Under the pieces are notes generated by a model. That model worked only from the letters and a program-made list of their open reading frames with translations, made no database searches and was not told the origin of the DNA. Both the position numbers and the translations under genes were made by a program. Positions 1-6,891 of a stretch of DNA of 7,658 nucleotides are shown piece after piece; the first letter of the stretch is position 1; every line of letters starts with the position of its first letter. The stretch is from a virus (taxonomy: Duplodnaviria; Heunggongvirae; Uroviricota; Caudoviricetes): the IMG/VR virus record IMGVR_UViG_2548876852_000010; one strand, written 5' to 3'.

Positions 1-42
1 GATGACGATCAGGGCGATTAACATCGCCTTTTGCTGCTTCAT
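1..42 (-). CDS. hok: Hok/Gef-family type I toxin, first 14 codons only (CDS continues past the window start)
   Basis: Reverse complement of 1..42 is ATG AAG CAG CAA AAG GCG ATG TTA ATC GCC CTG ATC GTC ATC = MKQQKAMLIALIVI, the characteristic N-terminus and start of the single TM helix of Hok/Gef/RelF-type toxins. It is preceded by the typical leader ...gaaaggcaaggagaagcaggct ATG with SD GGAG. Confidence 0.75.
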   Translation of the reverse strand, partial: MKQQKAMLIALIVI

Positions 43-99
43 AGCCTGCTTCTCCTTGCCTTTCGGCACGTAAGAGGCTAACCTAGATTTGCCGTTCAT
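1..99 (-). CDS. mok: mok-like upstream reading frame, in frame with and overlapping hok (translational coupler), partial
   Basis: ATG at 99..97 (minus) opens MNGKSRLASYVPKGKEKQA, which runs in frame into the hok ATG at 42. This is the same arrangement as chromosomal mok/hok pairs, where mok is an N-terminal extension. Confidence 0.45.
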   Translation of the reverse strand, partial: MNGKSRLASYVPKGKEKQAMKQQKAMLIALIVI

Positions 100-170
100 A
101 GATTGAGCCTCAGATTAATGTTAAGCGTCTTGCAGGACGCGTAATGTTAACTGGGGCTTTTCTCTATCTG
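91..170 (+). ncRNA. sok: Candidate Sok-like antisense RNA complementary to the mok translation-initiation region
   Basis: Plus-strand -35 TTGCCT (56..61), 17-bp spacer, -10 TAACCT (79..84), giving a start near 91. The transcript would be antisense to the mok start at 97..99. It contains an inner hairpin GCGTC-ttgcag-GACGC and an outer CCTCAG/CTGGGG stem followed by CTTTTCTC. Boundaries are approximate. Confidence 0.3.
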
Positions 171-217
171 CCTTTGGTGTTCATGCCTGAGACAGATAGC
201 CTCAAGCACCCGCAGCC

Positions 218-246
218 ATTCTACTTAACTCCCGTTACCTCGCCAA
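218..246 (-). promoter_or_regulatory. Candidate hok/mok mRNA promoter
   Basis: On the minus strand: TTGGCG (246..241), 17-bp spacer, TAGAAT (223..218). The predicted transcript would begin near 211 with GGGTGCTTGAGGC..., resembling the 5' fold-back end of hok mRNAs. Confidence 0.35.
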
Positions 247-1080: not shown

Positions 1081-1461
1081 CGGTCACCGATTGGTGATGA
1101 ATTGAAGCGGATCATTGATGAAAGTCGCAATAACGTGGCCAGCCCATTTATCGTTCACCAGATCCCGGAACGGCAGGTTAAACGCAGCAAAGAAGTTTCT
1201 CATCCCACTCAAGTTGCACCAGACTATTTGAGTCGGTCGTTTTCAGCTACGCGTGACAAGCTGGGTTTATATGACAAACGGCCGATGGATGAAAGGCCAA
1301 CCTTTCACGAAATTCGCGCCTTAGCAGCACATCTTTTTGATCAGCAGGGCATCGATCCACAAGGACGAATGGCACACAGCGATGCGAAATCAACTAAAAT
1401 CTACACGCAAAACCATATCGACTGGGTTGTAGTTCCACATGGAGAAATTAAAGCCAGCTAG
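1081..1461 (+). pseudogene. int: 5'-truncated lambda-family tyrosine integrase (C-terminal catalytic fragment only)
   Basis: The frame opens right after an in-frame TAG at 1078..1080, and the first start-like codon is TTG at 1102. The translation ends ...PTFHEIRALAAHLFDQQGIDPQGRMAHSDAKSTKIYTQNHIDWVVVPHGEIKAS, mirroring the lambda Int C-terminus (PTFHELRSLSARLY...HLLGH...Y...IEIK), including the catalytic Tyr region. No integrase-like sequence is found in any frame upstream of 1080. Confidence 0.7.
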
Positions 1462-1602: not shown

Positions 1603-2184
1603 TTATCTTCTTTTCAGTTCCTTGGGAAGAAAAGCATCTATTTCTTCTTCAGAAAATGTTAAATCTTCTTTGTTTTTTAATGCGTCCTGTGCTTTTTTAT
1701 AAGCTTCAAATGTTGTACTAGGAGAGCCTGAATACACTGAATGTAAACTCTCGAGTAACGAATCCCGCTCTGACTGCAATTGCTCGATTGGTTTTTCACC
1801 CATTGCTAAGTCTGTAAGCAATGATAAATACTTTTCTCGGATTAACCAGATCTCATTTGCAGCCTGCTTATGTTTTTGCGCCAACTCACCAAGGTCATAA
1901 TCTTTGGTATAAGCGTTAAGAATGAGAAGCAGTGTTGAAACAACAATCCCAACCCCCGTGCCTACTTCACCCGCGCCGAAAAAAGTTGCTAGAAAGCCTC
2001 CAGTAGTTAAGGCGGAGAGAATTATTTGCCAAAACTTTATAGAAGATAGTCGAGATAGGAGAATGTCTGAGCATTTTTCATGCGTCTTATGTGAGTAAAC
2101 GACCCGACCATAACACTCTCTGATCTGCCCTTCTAAAACCCTTCTAGATTCAGGTGTATCCTTAGTCTGGAAATGTTGATCCAT
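1603..2184 (-). CDS. SLATT-like 2-TM membrane effector (predicted partner of the upstream nucleotidyltransferase)
   Basis: The ORF spans 1603..2241. The preferred start is ATG 2184..2182, preceded by GGGAG (aaatggcGGGAGattt ATG), whereas the ATG at 2241 has no SD. Two adjacent hydrophobic helices (FWQIILSALTTGGFLATFF and GVGIVVSTLLLILNAY) are flanked by amphipathic helices with conserved-looking H/Y/W positions (VVYSHKTHEK ... AQKHKQAANEIWLIREKYL), which is SLATT-like architecture. It overlaps the upstream gene by 23 nt. Confidence 0.8.
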   Translation of the reverse strand: MDQHFQTKDTPESRRVLEGQIRECYGRVVYSHKTHEKCSDILLSRLSSIKFWQIILSALTTGGFLATFFGAGEVGTGVGIVVSTLLLILNAYTKDYDLGELAQKHKQAANEIWLIREKYLSLLTDLAMGEKPIEQLQSERDSLLESLHSVYSGSPSTTFEAYKKAQDALKNKEDLTFSEEEIDAFLPKELKRR

Positions 2185-3043
2185 AAATCTCCCGCCATTT
2201 TTGCTTAGCCGACCATTCGCGTTTTGGGGTCGCCATTTCATGCTCTATAGCTTCGAGTGAAATGTTATAGCACCGTTTTGCTTTATATTGGAAAAGCCCT
2301 TTACCATAGACATACTGACCACTTCCTGGCGCTTTCCAATACTCCTTACTCGTATCTTGATCAGCCATCCATTTGAAGAAATCACGACTCATGAAATCGT
2401 AGTAAAGATACGACTTATCTCTATGCGCCCAATTTTCAATGAATTGATACGCAAGCGTATCAATGAGTAAACCACTTATAGGTACATCCCATTTACGCTT
2501 CCAAGCTCTTGCCATTCTACAAAGTTGCACCAAATTGTTATTGGTAATGTTATTTCTTAACCTCATTGCAGAAATTTCTGGCTTTGGATTTGTAATCCTC
2601 CAACGGCCACCACCGTTCGCATCAGGAAATGTGTAACTATCACTAACATTGAGGAAAGCTGGAACGACTTCAAATGTAATTCCATCATTGAACGGTACAA
2701 GGATCACTTGACCGTCACCTCTAATACTAGTGGTAGCATAGGTTTTTTCAATAGATCTCTTAACCGCTTGAAGCAATGCTGACTGCCCATTTCCTAAGTA
2801 GCTATTGTATTTTTGATACTCGGAATATGGTAGCTGAAAAATCATATCCAGATCGCTCAAGCCTTGCGTAGCTGTGTTCCGACCATATGATCCAACGTAG
2901 AGACTATGAGAAGTATCAGAACTGCTATCCCAAAAATCCGTATTTAAACGCTTCGTTATATTCCTATATCTAGTTGAAATTGTTCCACCATCTTTTACAG
3001 TAAGATTGGAGCAAAATCCGCAAAACCACTCAGCTAAACCCAT
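2162..3043 (-). CDS. SMODS / CD-NTase-like nucleotidyltransferase (cGAS/DncV-like, Pol-beta fold)
   Basis: The track ORF 2162..3049 begins at TTG. The first ATG is 3043..3041, preceded by AAGGA. Motif GSYGRNTATQGLSDLD (nt 2846..2893) fits the G[SG]-x(9-13)-D-h-D nucleotidyltransferase signature, followed by a FEVVPAF strand carrying the likely third acidic residue. The N-terminus (AEWF..F...L.L...RY..I..RLN) is typical of SMODS domains. Stop TAA at 2162..2164. Confidence 0.8.
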   Translation of the reverse strand: MGLAEWFCGFCSNLTVKDGGTISTRYRNITKRLNTDFWDSSSDTSHSLYVGSYGRNTATQGLSDLDMIFQLPYSEYQKYNSYLGNGQSALLQAVKRSIEKTYATTSIRGDGQVILVPFNDGITFEVVPAFLNVSDSYTFPDANGGGRWRITNPKPEISAMRLRNNITNNNLVQLCRMARAWKRKWDVPISGLLIDTLAYQFIENWAHRDKSYLYYDFMSRDFFKWMADQDTSKEYWKAPGSGQYVYGKGLFQYKAKRCYNISLEAIEHEMATPKREWSAKQKWREIYGSTFPD

Positions 3044-3185
3044 GCTCAATTCCTTTTCTAAAATCTAATGAAAAATTCAAGGGCGCATGTTCCATGCATC
3101 ATTGATAACTTTTTTCAGTCAGCTAGAGCAACATAATTGATACTAACTAGCTGTTTCTTCAAGTGAGTAACCTACTTTAGCATCA

Positions 3186-5217: not shown

Positions 5218-5643
5218 TCAATGTACTGCCACAGCATTTCCTGCCGGGCCACCACGGTTCATCTGATTGAAACCGGCGATTGCCACTGCGACAAAATCAT
5301 CAGCGTCTCTCACCAGTCGCTCCCGCGTCTCCACCAGCTCCCGAAAATAAGCTGAACTGTGGCTGCGCATTCTGGCCACCAGCAAAGGTGGCATTGCCTT
5401 TTCGATCGCTGGTAACAACGCCTGAATTTTTTCAACTGCATCAGGGGTATCTTTCTCTATCCAGCGGAAAATTTTCTGGGTATTGCGAGCCAGGGCTTCC
5501 GGATGGCTGTCGTCGTACAGTTCAGGAAACGTCATACCCAACTCAAAATAAGCCTGGGTTATTCCAGCTGCCGGAACTTTTTCGCCATCAGGACGCGCCC
5601 AGGCATTCATCGCCATGCGGATGTGTTCATGCTTGATTTTCAT
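5218..5643 (-). CDS. YdaT-family protein (CII-like regulator of cryptic and lambdoid prophages)
   Basis: The best start is the internal ATG at 5643, preceded by AAGGGGGG. The product begins MKIKHEHI... and ends ...VAVH, at about 141 aa, matching the length, termini and position (after the cro analogue, before the replication gene) of the Rac YdaT family as I recall it. The upstream extension of the track ORF has no SD. Confidence 0.65.
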   Translation of the reverse strand: MKIKHEHIRMAMNAWARPDGEKVPAAGITQAYFELGMTFPELYDDSHPEALARNTQKIFRWIEKDTPDAVEKIQALLPAIEKAMPPLLVARMRSHSSAYFRELVETRERLVRDADDFVAVAIAGFNQMNRGGPAGNAVAVH

Positions 5644-5869
5644 GAATCCCCCCTTGGTTAGAAGGCGGATTATGATCAGAACCGGGAATGACAACCGTCG
5701 GTATGTGTAACTCATATTTGAGCGCCCCGGCAGTGACTGCCTGAATTAGCAACGCCCATTTCCACGGAACCTCTTCCCCCCACATGCTGACTGTGGTTTT
5801 TGACGTTCCTAGAGCTGCGGCTGTTTTAACAACTCCGCCAAAATAGCCTAATACTTCTGATTTTTTCAT
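5627..5869 (-). CDS. Cro/YdaS-like small HTH regulator
   Basis: The best start is ATG at 5869, preceded by GGAG 7 nt upstream. HTH signature YFGGVVKTAAALGTSKTTVSMW. It is divergent from the CI-like gene and overlaps the YdaT-like start by 17 nt. Confidence 0.65.
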   Translation of the reverse strand: MKKSEVLGYFGGVVKTAAALGTSKTTVSMWGEEVPWKWALLIQAVTAGALKYELHIPTVVIPGSDHNPPSNQGGIHENQA

Positions 5870-5897
5870 GAGTCGCTCCATAAAACTGAACGCCAAA

Positions 5898-5927
5898 AGT
5901 TTAATAATCAAAACCAAAGAAAGTCAA
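5898..5927 (-). promoter_or_regulatory. Candidate PR-like promoter for the cro/YdaS - YdaT - rep operon
   Basis: On the minus strand: -35 TTGACT (5927..5922), 18-bp spacer, -10 TAAACT (5903..5898). The -10 hexamer is identical to that of the PL-like promoter at 6707..6712. Confidence 0.35.
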
Positions 5928-5942
5928 GAAACAAAACCATCT

Positions 5943-5962
5943 GTGTTTTAAAATCAAAACAT
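5943..5962. promoter_or_regulatory. Operator-like 20-bp palindrome GTGTTTT-aaaatc-AAAACAT overlapping the CI start codon
   Basis: 7-bp inverted arms with a 6-bp spacer. The architecture is the same as the palindrome at 6665..6684, with arms differing at one position. It overlaps a -10-like TAAAAT (5949..5954) placed 6 nt before the SD-less CI ATG. Confidence 0.45.
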
Positions 5963-6599
5963 GAGCAAGCAAACAATATCTGAACGCATAACCCAACGTA
6001 TGCATGCGCTAAACCTGAAAGGCAAAGACCTTGTCAATGCCACTGGCGCATCAAAAGGCTCCGTAAGTCAATGGATGAACGGTGGAGGAGCGCCGTCCTC
6101 GCGTTACATAAGTTCACTGGCAAAAATATTGAAAGTAAACGAAAATTGGCTTCTTAATGGAGGAGAGTTAAATACAGGTGATTCGCTTGATCTATCTTTA
6201 CCGCCGATAAAAACGGTTCCGCTACTATCACTTCAGCAGGCAGCAAGCTGGAGTGATTATATGAAAAATTCCTCAATAACCTCTTGTGTGCAGCTTGTCG
6301 GAGAAATCCCGGCCAATACCTTTGCAGTTGTTCTAGAGAGTGACAGTATGTCAACATCTGGTGGGGGAGTTTCCATCCCAAATGGTTCAACAGTTTTTGT
6401 TGATCCCAATCGAACCGTACAACCAGGAAATATTGTCCTTGCCTTACCCAAAGGGACCACAACACCTGTCATTCGTAAACTGGAGATAGAAGGGCCGGAT
6501 ATTCTTTTAGTCCCCACGAATCCTCGCTACCCTTCAATTATGCTGGATGATCTATCTTGCATATTGGGCGTATGCTTTAAAATTCAACAAGATATTTAA
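5961..6599 (+). CDS. CI-like phage repressor (N-terminal HTH + C-terminal S24 LexA-like autopeptidase domain)
   Basis: ATG at 5961. The HTH region is LKGKDLVNATGASKGSVSQWMNG. The C-terminal domain has the S24 Ser/Lys dyad context (ESDSMS ... VIRKL) and collinear similarity to the lambda CI C-terminus (VFVDPNRTVQPGNIVLALP ... LLVPTNPRYPSIMLDD versus LVDPEQAVEPGDFCIARL ... FLQPLNPQYPMIPCNE). No SD, so possibly leaderless like lambda cI from PRM. Confidence 0.88.
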   Translation: MSKQTISERITQRMHALNLKGKDLVNATGASKGSVSQWMNGGGAPSSRYISSLAKILKVNENWLLNGGELNTGDSLDLSLPPIKTVPLLSLQQAASWSDYMKNSSITSCVQLVGEIPANTFAVVLESDSMSTSGGGVSIPNGSTVFVDPNRTVQPGNIVLALPKGTTTPVIRKLEIEGPDILLVPTNPRYPSIMLDDLSCILGVCFKIQQDI

Positions 6600-6664
6600 C
6601 CGACCTCATCTATTTGATTAACTGTATGCCATCGTGGTGATGGCTTAACAGCTGCCTGCTTAAA

Positions 6665-6684
6665 ATGTTTTGATAAAAAAACAT
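6665..6684. promoter_or_regulatory. Operator-like 20-bp palindrome ATGTTTT-gataaa-AAAACAT overlapping the -35 of the PL-like promoter
   Basis: Perfect 7-bp inverted repeat with a 6-bp spacer. Its last base is the first T of TTGACC. Confidence 0.45.
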
Positions 6685-6712
6685 TGACCTGAAAAGTTCA
6701 TTTTTCTAAACT
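6684..6712 (+). promoter_or_regulatory. Candidate PL-like sigma70 promoter for the downstream plus-strand operon
   Basis: -35 TTGACC (6684..6689), 17-bp spacer, -10 TAAACT (6707..6712), downstream of and co-directional with the CI-like gene. Confidence 0.4.
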
Positions 6713-6727
6713 TCATTCATTCCCTCT

Positions 6728-6736
6728 CCCCCCCCC
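6728..6736. repeat. Homopolymeric C9 tract in the leader downstream of the PL-like promoter
   Basis: CCCCCCCCC read directly, about 16 nt after the candidate -10 and upstream of the first plus-strand small ORF. Confidence 0.9.
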
Positions 6737-6891
6737 ACAGAATGCAGGGCAATACTTCGAGTTACCAGGCAGTGGTCAGGGGTTAAGTAGCCAGCCCGAG
6801 GCGTAAGAACATGACGGCAGGGTTCAACTTTAATAACTATGCAGCAGGTTTTTGTTCCGCTACCCCGGCGTTAAGGGGAAATGAGGTCAGC

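Follow-up and report, generated by a model that had tools for sequence, protein, structure and literature searches.

Predicted operators of a lambda-type immunity switch, and a candidate leaderless cI transcript, in a Qin/Rac-like prophage of Escherichia coli

Introduction

The DNA considered here is a stretch of 7,658 nucleotides, hereafter the window, in which a cro-like and a cI-like gene are transcribed divergently from either side of a 91-bp intergenic region. The arrangement raises the question of which sequences would serve as operators for the products of the two genes, from which promoter cI would be transcribed, given that its start codon lacks a Shine-Dalgarno sequence (SD), and how closely the circuit would follow that of phage lambda.

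Two characterised systems of E. coli bear on these questions. The prophage CP-933P of E. coli O157:H7 has an intergenic region of 97 bp with equally spaced 18-bp palindromes, reported to be four in number, two of which have degenerate left halves; its PL has -35 and -10 hexamers identical to those of PR, both regulators footprint both promoters, and the mRNA for the repressor is leaderless, as judged by 5' RACE, N-terminal sequencing, and mass spectrometry (PMC8630535). The Qin prophage of E. coli K-12 has three operators at each of dicCp and dicBp, the latter of which is repressed by DicA (PMC10448788).

Here we argue that positions 5870..5962 are the right operator region (OR) of a lambda-type prophage switch, in which dimers of CI would silence PR and PL and in which occupancy of the operator nearest to cI (Oc) would silence the leaderless transcription of cI itself. 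From the sequence and from the analogy to characterised switches, we assign this reading a probability of roughly 0.7.

Results

The Window Is the Immunity Region of a Qin/Rac-Like Lambdoid Prophage

The window differs by a single base (5915, C/A) from the chromosome of E. coli 2013C-4991 (NZ_CP027355.1) and is the immunity region of a Qin/Rac-like lambdoid prophage. Counted as present at a coverage of 80% or greater, the 1.2-kb immunity cassette occurs in 1042 of the 5426 complete E. coli genomes and also in three records of phages. The principal features of the region are collected in Table 1. On the minus strand, cro is followed directly by a gene that RefSeq names "toxin YdaT family protein" and, farther on, by an O-like and a DUF977 gene. 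The plus strand has cI, then a DUF1391/ydfA-like gene, and, in the matching genome, dicB and ydfD next (as annotated in L001). The start of cro lies at 5869 and not at 5871, behind an SD (GGAG) at 5879..5876.

Table 1. Genes, promoters, and predicted operators in and around the immunity region (window coordinates)
Feature	Position	Strand	Details
YdaT-family gene, directly downstream of cro	5643..5218	-	Pfam YdaT_toxin, E=6e-10
cro-like gene, 80 aa, P22_Cro/DicC family	5627..5869	-	Pfam PF14549, E=1e-15; PDB 1rzs (P22 Cro), E=2.5e-8
Possible YdaT (CII-analogue) site	5633..5650		TTGATT-ttcatg-AATCCC; at the cro/ydaT junction, spanning the ydaT start codon
Oa, inferred operator (OR1-like)	5897..5916		AAGTTTA-ataatc-AAAACCA; overlaps PR -10
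PR-like promoter for the cro-ydaT-replication genes	5898..5927	-	TTGACT (5927..5922)-18-TAAACT (5903..5898)
Ob, inferred operator (OR2-like)	5920..5939		AAAGTCA-agaaac-AAAACCA; overlaps PR -35
Oc, predicted operator (OR3-like)	5943..5962		13/14 to the 7-6-7 consensus
Candidate PRM	5949..5961	+	-10 TAAAAT (5949..5954), 6 nt (CAAAAC), then A of the cI ATG (5961) as inferred +1
cI-like repressor gene, 212 aa	5961..6599	+	Pfam HTH_3 and Peptidase_S24; PDB 3bdn, E=7e-10
OL-distal, predicted operator, perfect palindrome	6665..6684		14/14 to the 7-6-7 consensus
PL-like promoter (dicBp equivalent), ydfA-like/dicB operon	6684..6712	+	TTGACC (6684..6689)-17-TAAACT (6707..6712)
OL-proximal, inferred operator	6694..6713		AAGTTCA-tttttc-TAAACTT; between PL -35 and -10, covering -10

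The window also holds features that lie apart from the switch. A fragment of a tyrosine recombinase gene is found at 1102..1461, which the annotation of the matching genome gives as frameshifted or partial, and an IS4-family pseudogene is located close to it in L001; the prophage is probably defective. On the minus strand, a SMODS nucleotidyltransferase gene (3049..2162; E=2e-50) is adjacent to a gene for a SLATT_4 effector with two transmembrane segments (2241..1603; E=6e-74), a pair (1603..3049) whose sequence makes it a candidate for a minimal, CBASS-like defence module of the prophage. A sok antitoxin RNA was recognised at 37..211 on the minus strand (Rfam, 110 bits, E=5e-25), the matching genome has an annotated hokD just outside the window on its left, and the promoter-like site that ranks first in the window, with its -10 at 223..218, is probably that of the sok RNA.

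The Regulators Are a CI/LexA-Type Repressor and a P22-Type Cro

The inferred product of cI joins an N-terminal helix-turn-helix (HTH) of the 434/P22 c2/DicA kind to a C-terminal S24 peptidase domain like that of lambda CI. Its alignment with lambda CI extends over residues 13-204, and the N-terminal domain shows weak matches to the 434 repressor and P22 c2. The catalytic serine and lysine are kept, with DSM aligned to NSM and RKL to KKL of lambda CI, which we take to be Ser149 and Lys192. The NCBIfam model for DicA matched the N-terminal domain only, at 40 bits against a cutoff of 101, and the model for DicC matched Cro at 31 bits against a cutoff of 130; on the evidence of their sequences CI and Cro are related to DicA and DicC and not orthologous to them.

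An Ala-Gly or Cys-Gly cleavage site, such as serves in RecA-stimulated induction, was not found in CI, in which Q93-A94-A95-S96 aligned with Q-A-G-M of lambda. The place of the self-cleavage bond of lambda, Ala111-Gly112, is taken by Ala94-Ala95 (window 6240..6245, QQAASW). QQAAS is present in all close relatives that keep this stretch, and the homologue in a heteroimmune cassette, L130, has QAG. The Ala-Ala pair may mean that the SOS inducibility of the repressor is altered. We also observed a repressor variant of 178 aa that lacks the whole linker, including the region of the cleavage site (L007 2501..3037 and L008 1794..2330); at the same loci the spacer of OL-distal is missing 1 bp, and a T in the left arm of OL-proximal is replaced by C. 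This variant may be a decaying or non-inducible derivative.

The start of cI at 5961 is, from the sequence, secure. A TAA at 5949 is in frame and upstream of the ATG, and 5961 is therefore the only start that keeps the first helix of the HTH. Residues 1-13 make up that helix and can be aligned with the N-terminal end of a homologue from a heteroimmune cassette, and the Pfam matches to the HTH begin at residue 9 (HTH_31) and residue 17 (HTH_3). The 20 nt upstream of the ATG contain two G residues only, with no GGAG, GAGG, or AGGA that could act as an SD.

We compared this start with existing annotation at L001 7662..8000 and L002 3401..4000. In NZ_CP027355.1 the cI open reading frame is intact, yet the RefSeq/PGAP annotation is restricted to the last 112 aa of the protein ("LexA family protein", from window 6261); in the phage record ON470612 the gene begins with the ATG at 6000, 13 codons late. 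The HTH is lost in part or whole from both calls, and the probable reason is that the true start lacks an SD. A start of this kind thus exposes a problem of annotation, in that the DNA-binding domain is dropped from gene calls.

Two Strong Palindromes Flank cI

Oc, at the start of cI, reads GTGTTTTaaaatcAAAACAT, with arms GTGTTTT and AAAACAT separated by AAAATC and complementary at six of seven positions. OL-distal, at the left promoter, reads ATGTTTTgataaaAAAACAT, with arms ATGTTTT and AAAACAT separated by GATAAA and complementary at all seven positions, or at eight of eight when 6664 and 6685 are added. That the two share one 7-6-7 architecture, as had been noticed by the sequence-only reading, can be read directly from the letters. 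Oc spans the -10 of the candidate PRM and runs into the cI start codon by two bases, and OL-distal adjoins the -35 of PL, with an overlap of 1 nt; the two sites flank cI.

When one mismatch or fewer to the 7-6-7 palindrome was allowed, Oc and OL-distal were the only matches in the 7658 bp, as compared with 0.01 expected, and none of 200 shuffled sequences had two. With up to two mismatches, a search of 15.2 kb of the near-identical prophage L001 again returned these two alone. An operator of identical type at OR and at OL/PL is a mark of the lambdoid CI/Cro switch, and the window has it. In the literature library searched, no paper prints the operator strings; the operator sequence appears to be undescribed, and the overall design is an ordinary one, already known from lambda and CP-933P.

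Phased Half-Sites Suggest a Three-Site Right Operator

In a scan with a sigma-70 position weight matrix (PWM), PL ranked second and PR third of 15,224 positions, and transcription from PR would start near 5891. The -10 hexamer TAAACT is, as previously proposed, common to the two promoters, and the identity reaches the 7-mer TAAACTT.

The right half-site CAAAAC occurs three times in OR, at exact steps of 23 bp (CAAAACCA, CAAAACCA, and CAAAACAT at 5909, 5932, and 5955, respectively). Dinucleotide shuffling of these 93 nt gave three equally spaced copies of any 6-mer in only 61 of 20,000 trials (p≈0.003). The half-site-like motifs that the sequence-only reading had placed across the cro promoter therefore fare differently: those near 5912 and 5933 (AAAACC at 5910..5915 and 5933..5938) are in 23-bp phase with the right arm of Oc, whereas that near 5883 (AAAACT at 5882..5887) is out of phase and belongs to the cro leader. 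We also considered a fourth in-phase site, at about 5874..5893 and including the 5883 motif, and rejected it because its arms do not match.

The three in-phase half-sites define Oa, Ob, and Oc. Oa is 74% identical to Oc over 19 nt at a distance of 46 bp and matches the consensus at 10 of 14 positions, a score reached by 11 sites in the window and hence at chance level by sequence alone; in L130, a heteroimmune cassette, the corresponding position is taken by a perfect palindrome. Ob has a good right half and a degenerate left half, and with 7 of 14 matches (9 of 14 one base further on), which is likewise chance level, it draws its support only from phasing and conservation. OL-proximal matches at 9 of 14 positions, again at chance level, and the likeness of Oa and OL-proximal is in part that of the shared -10 hexamer. 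From phasing, conservation, and analogy we infer that Oa, Ob, and OL-proximal are operators. A further symmetry at the left promoter, GAAAA-gttcat-TTTTC at 6691..6706, was rejected as being of the wrong polarity and not conserved.

Relative to the predicted start of PR, the centres of the three OR sites would fall at about -15.5, -38.5, and -61.5; those of lambda OR1-3 are at about -17, -41, and -64. The centres of the two OL sites are 29 bp apart, which puts them on different faces of the helix, a point against the proposed arrangement.

The Predicted Sites Are Conserved among Relatives

For the analysis of conservation, relatives were ascertained through the protein and not through a DNA pattern, and had CI products 83-100% identical to that of the window. 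A scan for CI relatives in species-representative genomes found none, and the close relatives returned by a word-indexed protein search numbered only 12. (A scan of viral contigs for phased CAAAAC returned mostly the same prophage and unrelated tandem repeats; being biased for the pattern, it was left out of the test.) In these relatives the HTH hardly varies, and the intergenic region is always exactly 91 nt long. Across 10 OR haplotypes, 4 of 60 columns within the sites were variable, as compared with 14 of 33 columns outside them (Fisher p=6e-5), and of the six columns that make up the spacers between sites, four varied (p=0.0013).

Oc is unchanged in the relatives except for A5956G in the L004 type, and OL-distal is conserved, together with the -35 of PL, across 42 haplotypes; the common site is thus kept even where CI is only 83-89% identical. 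The left arm of OL-proximal, AAGTTCA, is replaced by ATGTTCA in about 20 loci and by ATGTTTG in the L004 type, in both cases toward the consensus. In seven loci the A-run in the spacer of OL-distal is shorter by 1 bp, which is either tolerated or an assembly error, and which counts against a strict requirement for spacing; two of the seven also have the CI variant without a linker.

Palindromes of Heteroimmune Cassettes Occupy Matching Promoter Positions

In other E. coli strains, conserved flanks, namely the 5' end of ydaT and the ydfA leader, enclose unrelated pairs of repressor and cro genes. The -35 of PL aligns as TTGAC in most of the immunity types compared and is TTTAC in L131. Rac and L131 have palindromes of their own just upstream of the PL -35 and between the -35 and the -10, and L130 has a clear palindrome between the two hexamers. 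The CI and Cro of L130 are only 32% and 38% identical, respectively, to those of the window, and the spacing from the cro ATG to the cI ATG is likewise 91 nt. L130 contains three perfect palindromes of the form GTAAC-N4-GTTAC, one at the position equivalent to Oa, one abutting the cI ATG, and one in PL. The presence of unrelated palindromes at the same promoter positions points to operators that act at the level of DNA. Thus, the proposal that a common repressor site is found at both promoters of the window gains support, by computation and by analogy, from palindromes that are non-random, are kept in relatives, and are mirrored in heteroimmune cassettes.

A Candidate Promoter Would Begin the cI Transcript at Its Start Codon

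The -10 of the candidate PRM scored 6.5 bits and ranked 73rd of the 15,224 positions; in the same PWM scan the promoter had no recognisable -35 (AAGAAA, about 0 bits). This profile fits a weak or factor-dependent PRM and is no proof of one. In lambda, too, the -10 hexamer of PRM is 6 nt before the cI ATG, and a -10-like hexamer precedes an SD-less ATG by 7 nt in L130 and by 6 nt in L131. By contrast, racR of Rac has an SD. Of the leaderless, PRM-type transcript suggested by the sequence-only reading, then, the missing SD and the TAAAAT placed 6 nt before the ATG hold up; what speaks for it is computation and analogy.

Lambda CI activates PRM from a position at -42. With 5961 as +1, the centre of Ob would be near -31.5, a full helical turn closer to the promoter than is lambda OR2 to PRM, and on this ground positive autoregulation in the manner of lambda is doubtful.

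Discussion

A Model for the Switch

We propose that a dimer of the repressor, and probably of Cro as well, would bind 20-bp sites of the form ATGTTTT-N6-AAAACAT. Three such sites, with centres 23 bp apart, would make up OR, with Oa over the -10 of PR, Ob over its -35, and Oc over the -10 and +1 of cI, and two more would bracket PL, with OL-distal abutting the -35 and OL-proximal covering the -10. Repressor at Oa, Ob, and the OL sites would shut off both the cro-ydaT-replication genes and the toxic ydfA-dicB operon. The gene for the repressor would most likely be transcribed from the TAAAAT at 5949..5954, as a leaderless mRNA that starts at the A of its ATG, and would be turned off when Oc is filled by excess repressor or by Cro. 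Sequence, statistics, the pattern of conservation, and the protein families are what the analysis shows; the protein bound at each site and the order of binding, any cooperativity, the transcription starts, and any positive autoregulation are our inferences.

The strongest site in OR lies on the promoter of the repressor gene itself and not on PR, which is the opposite of the order of affinities of lambda CI and would fit a site preferred by Cro equally well. It is therefore possible, though not probable, that Oc and OL-distal are mainly high-affinity sites for Cro, as OR3 is in lambda, that the consensus reflects the preference of Cro, and that the primary targets of the repressor in the lysogen are the weaker, phased sites at PR and PL. 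The placement of the best OR site over the promoter and start codon of cI is what would be expected of such an arrangement, and the Cro analogue of CP-933P, YdaS, does bind the PRM side first (PMC8630535). The DNA-binding region of Cro is, moreover, as well conserved among the variants as is the HTH of CI, and conservation consequently cannot separate the two proteins. Against this, CI and Cro share operators in the characterised lambdoid switches, a perfect site at the -35 of PL would be at least as useful to a repressor that silences the toxic dicB operon, and nothing in the sequence separates the two specificities.

A different account of cI concerns its transcript. The message could carry a leader, coming from a PRE-type promoter near the cro/ydaT junction activated by YdaT (as a CII-like protein) or from some other upstream start. 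Its AUG, although without an SD, would then be translated because the surrounding RNA is rich in A and unstructured, and TAAAAT would be a chance hexamer in the AT-rich DNA of the operator. The candidate PRM does lack a -35, and another TAAAAT, at 6661..6666, has no obvious role. There is also a possible site for YdaT, TTGATT-N6-AATCCC, at the cro/ydaT junction. It matches TTGATT-N6-AATCAA at 10 of 12 positions and is the sole such match in the window, but at a frequency expected by chance; its location agrees with that at which YdaT of CP-933P binds TTGATT-N6-AATCAA, a footprint at the end of ydaS (PMC9986795). The site could, judging from its sequence, provide a PRE-like control for the establishment of cI. 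A maintenance promoter would nevertheless still be required in the lysogen, in which cro and ydaT are repressed, and the geometry of a -10, 6-7 nt, and an ATG with no SD recurs in L130, L131, lambda, and CP-933P, in the last of which it has been tested. We therefore consider a leadered cI message rather unlikely.

That the palindromes act as RNA, as a hairpin masking the cI AUG or a 3' hairpin after cI, or represent chance symmetry in AT-rich DNA is hardly credible: both do fold, and the hairpin at 6660..6690 is more stable than shuffled sequences (z=-5.5), but the hairpins amount to only -3.6 and -5.7 kcal/mol, that of Oc is no better than shuffles (z=-0.7), no T-run follows OL-distal, the finding of two copies against 0.01 expected excludes chance, and heteroimmune cassettes have unrelated palindromes at the same promoter positions.

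Comparison with Known Switches

The switch that we favour, with CI at shared operators and a leaderless cI, would resemble that of lambda in its divergent cI and cro genes, in a CI composed of an HTH and an S24 domain, in three operators about 23 bp apart over the PR -10, the PR -35, and the cI promoter, in the repetition of the operator type at PL, and in a cI that has no SD and a -10 hexamer 6 nt before its ATG. It would differ from lambda in its 20-bp operator of 7-6-7 form with arms ATGTTTT/AAAACAT, in having its best OR site at the OR3 equivalent, in predicted PR and PRM starts that are about 70 bp apart (about 82 in lambda), in a Cro of the P22 family and a YdaT in place of CII, and in an Ala-Ala at the position of lambda Ala111-Gly112.

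Given that the presumed strongest operators lie on the promoter and start of cI and upstream of the PL -35, that Ob would be too close for activation, and that the cleavage site is Ala-Ala, one might go further and envisage a poorly SOS-inducible switch, dominated by autorepression and wired unlike that of lambda, that serves mainly to silence the toxic dicB/dicF in a largely cryptic prophage. We regard this extension as speculative and on balance doubtful.

The likeness to CP-933P, the closest of the studied systems, lies in a backbone of the YdaS/YdaT type (found also in Rac) with a YdaT-family gene after cro, a short divergent intergenic region (97 bp there and 91 bp here), and equally spaced palindromes, some with degenerate left halves. 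The proteins are nonetheless different: the repressor of CP-933P is PaaR2, which has no sequence similarity to CI, and its Cro is YdaS (HTH_Xre), whereas the window has a CI/LexA-type repressor and a P22_Cro/DicC-like Cro. The operator half-site of CP-933P is GTTTAGTAA, and four palindromes are reported there, as compared with the three predicted in OR here.

With Qin the window has in common a ydfA...dicB-ydfD operon under a PL-like promoter, a Cro that resembles DicC, and a CI whose N-terminal domain resembles DicA, in both cases below the family cutoffs. DicA, however, has 135 aa, lacks an S24 domain, and is under the control of the antirepressor Rem, whereas the repressor of the window has a full S24 domain, and the operator sequences differ. 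The immC region of P22 has a Cro of the same family and, in c2, a repressor that the N-terminal domain of CI weakly matches. P22 operators are similarly long (18-20 bp) and AT-rich; the half-site sequence and the downstream genes are different, and sequence identity is low.

The switch would thus be one more example of the well-known lambda/CP-933P design, with a new immunity specificity. The cassette is present in about a fifth of E. coli genomes and controls, on this model, an operon of host-toxic genes of the dicB/ydfD type. Known operators would make it possible to predict immunity groups and cross-repression between co-resident prophages, as well as the conditions under which DicB and DicF are released.

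Other Features of the Left Side

Downstream of PL is a C-rich leader (CCCTCTCCCCCCCCCACAGAATGCAGGGCAATACTTCGAG...; 6722..6890, and especially 6728..6800) that follows many unrelated immunity cassettes with 94-100% conservation, among them that of K-12 Rac, where it is found downstream of racR, and that was matched in 3719 of the 5426 genomes. The conserved stretch at 6719..6815 was no more structured than shuffled sequences (z=+1.2), and Rfam gave no family match in the operator or leader regions. It is conceivable that the leader is a rut/nut-like site or a recombination joint for the exchange of modules.

Finally, a hairpin, GCCATC-gtggt-GATGGC, is located at 6628..6644, just past the cI stop codon. 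Its stem is invariant in the 42 haplotypes while positions in its loop vary, and it is not followed by a T-run. The hairpin could be a weak terminator, an element of the RNA 3' end, or a protein-binding palindrome.
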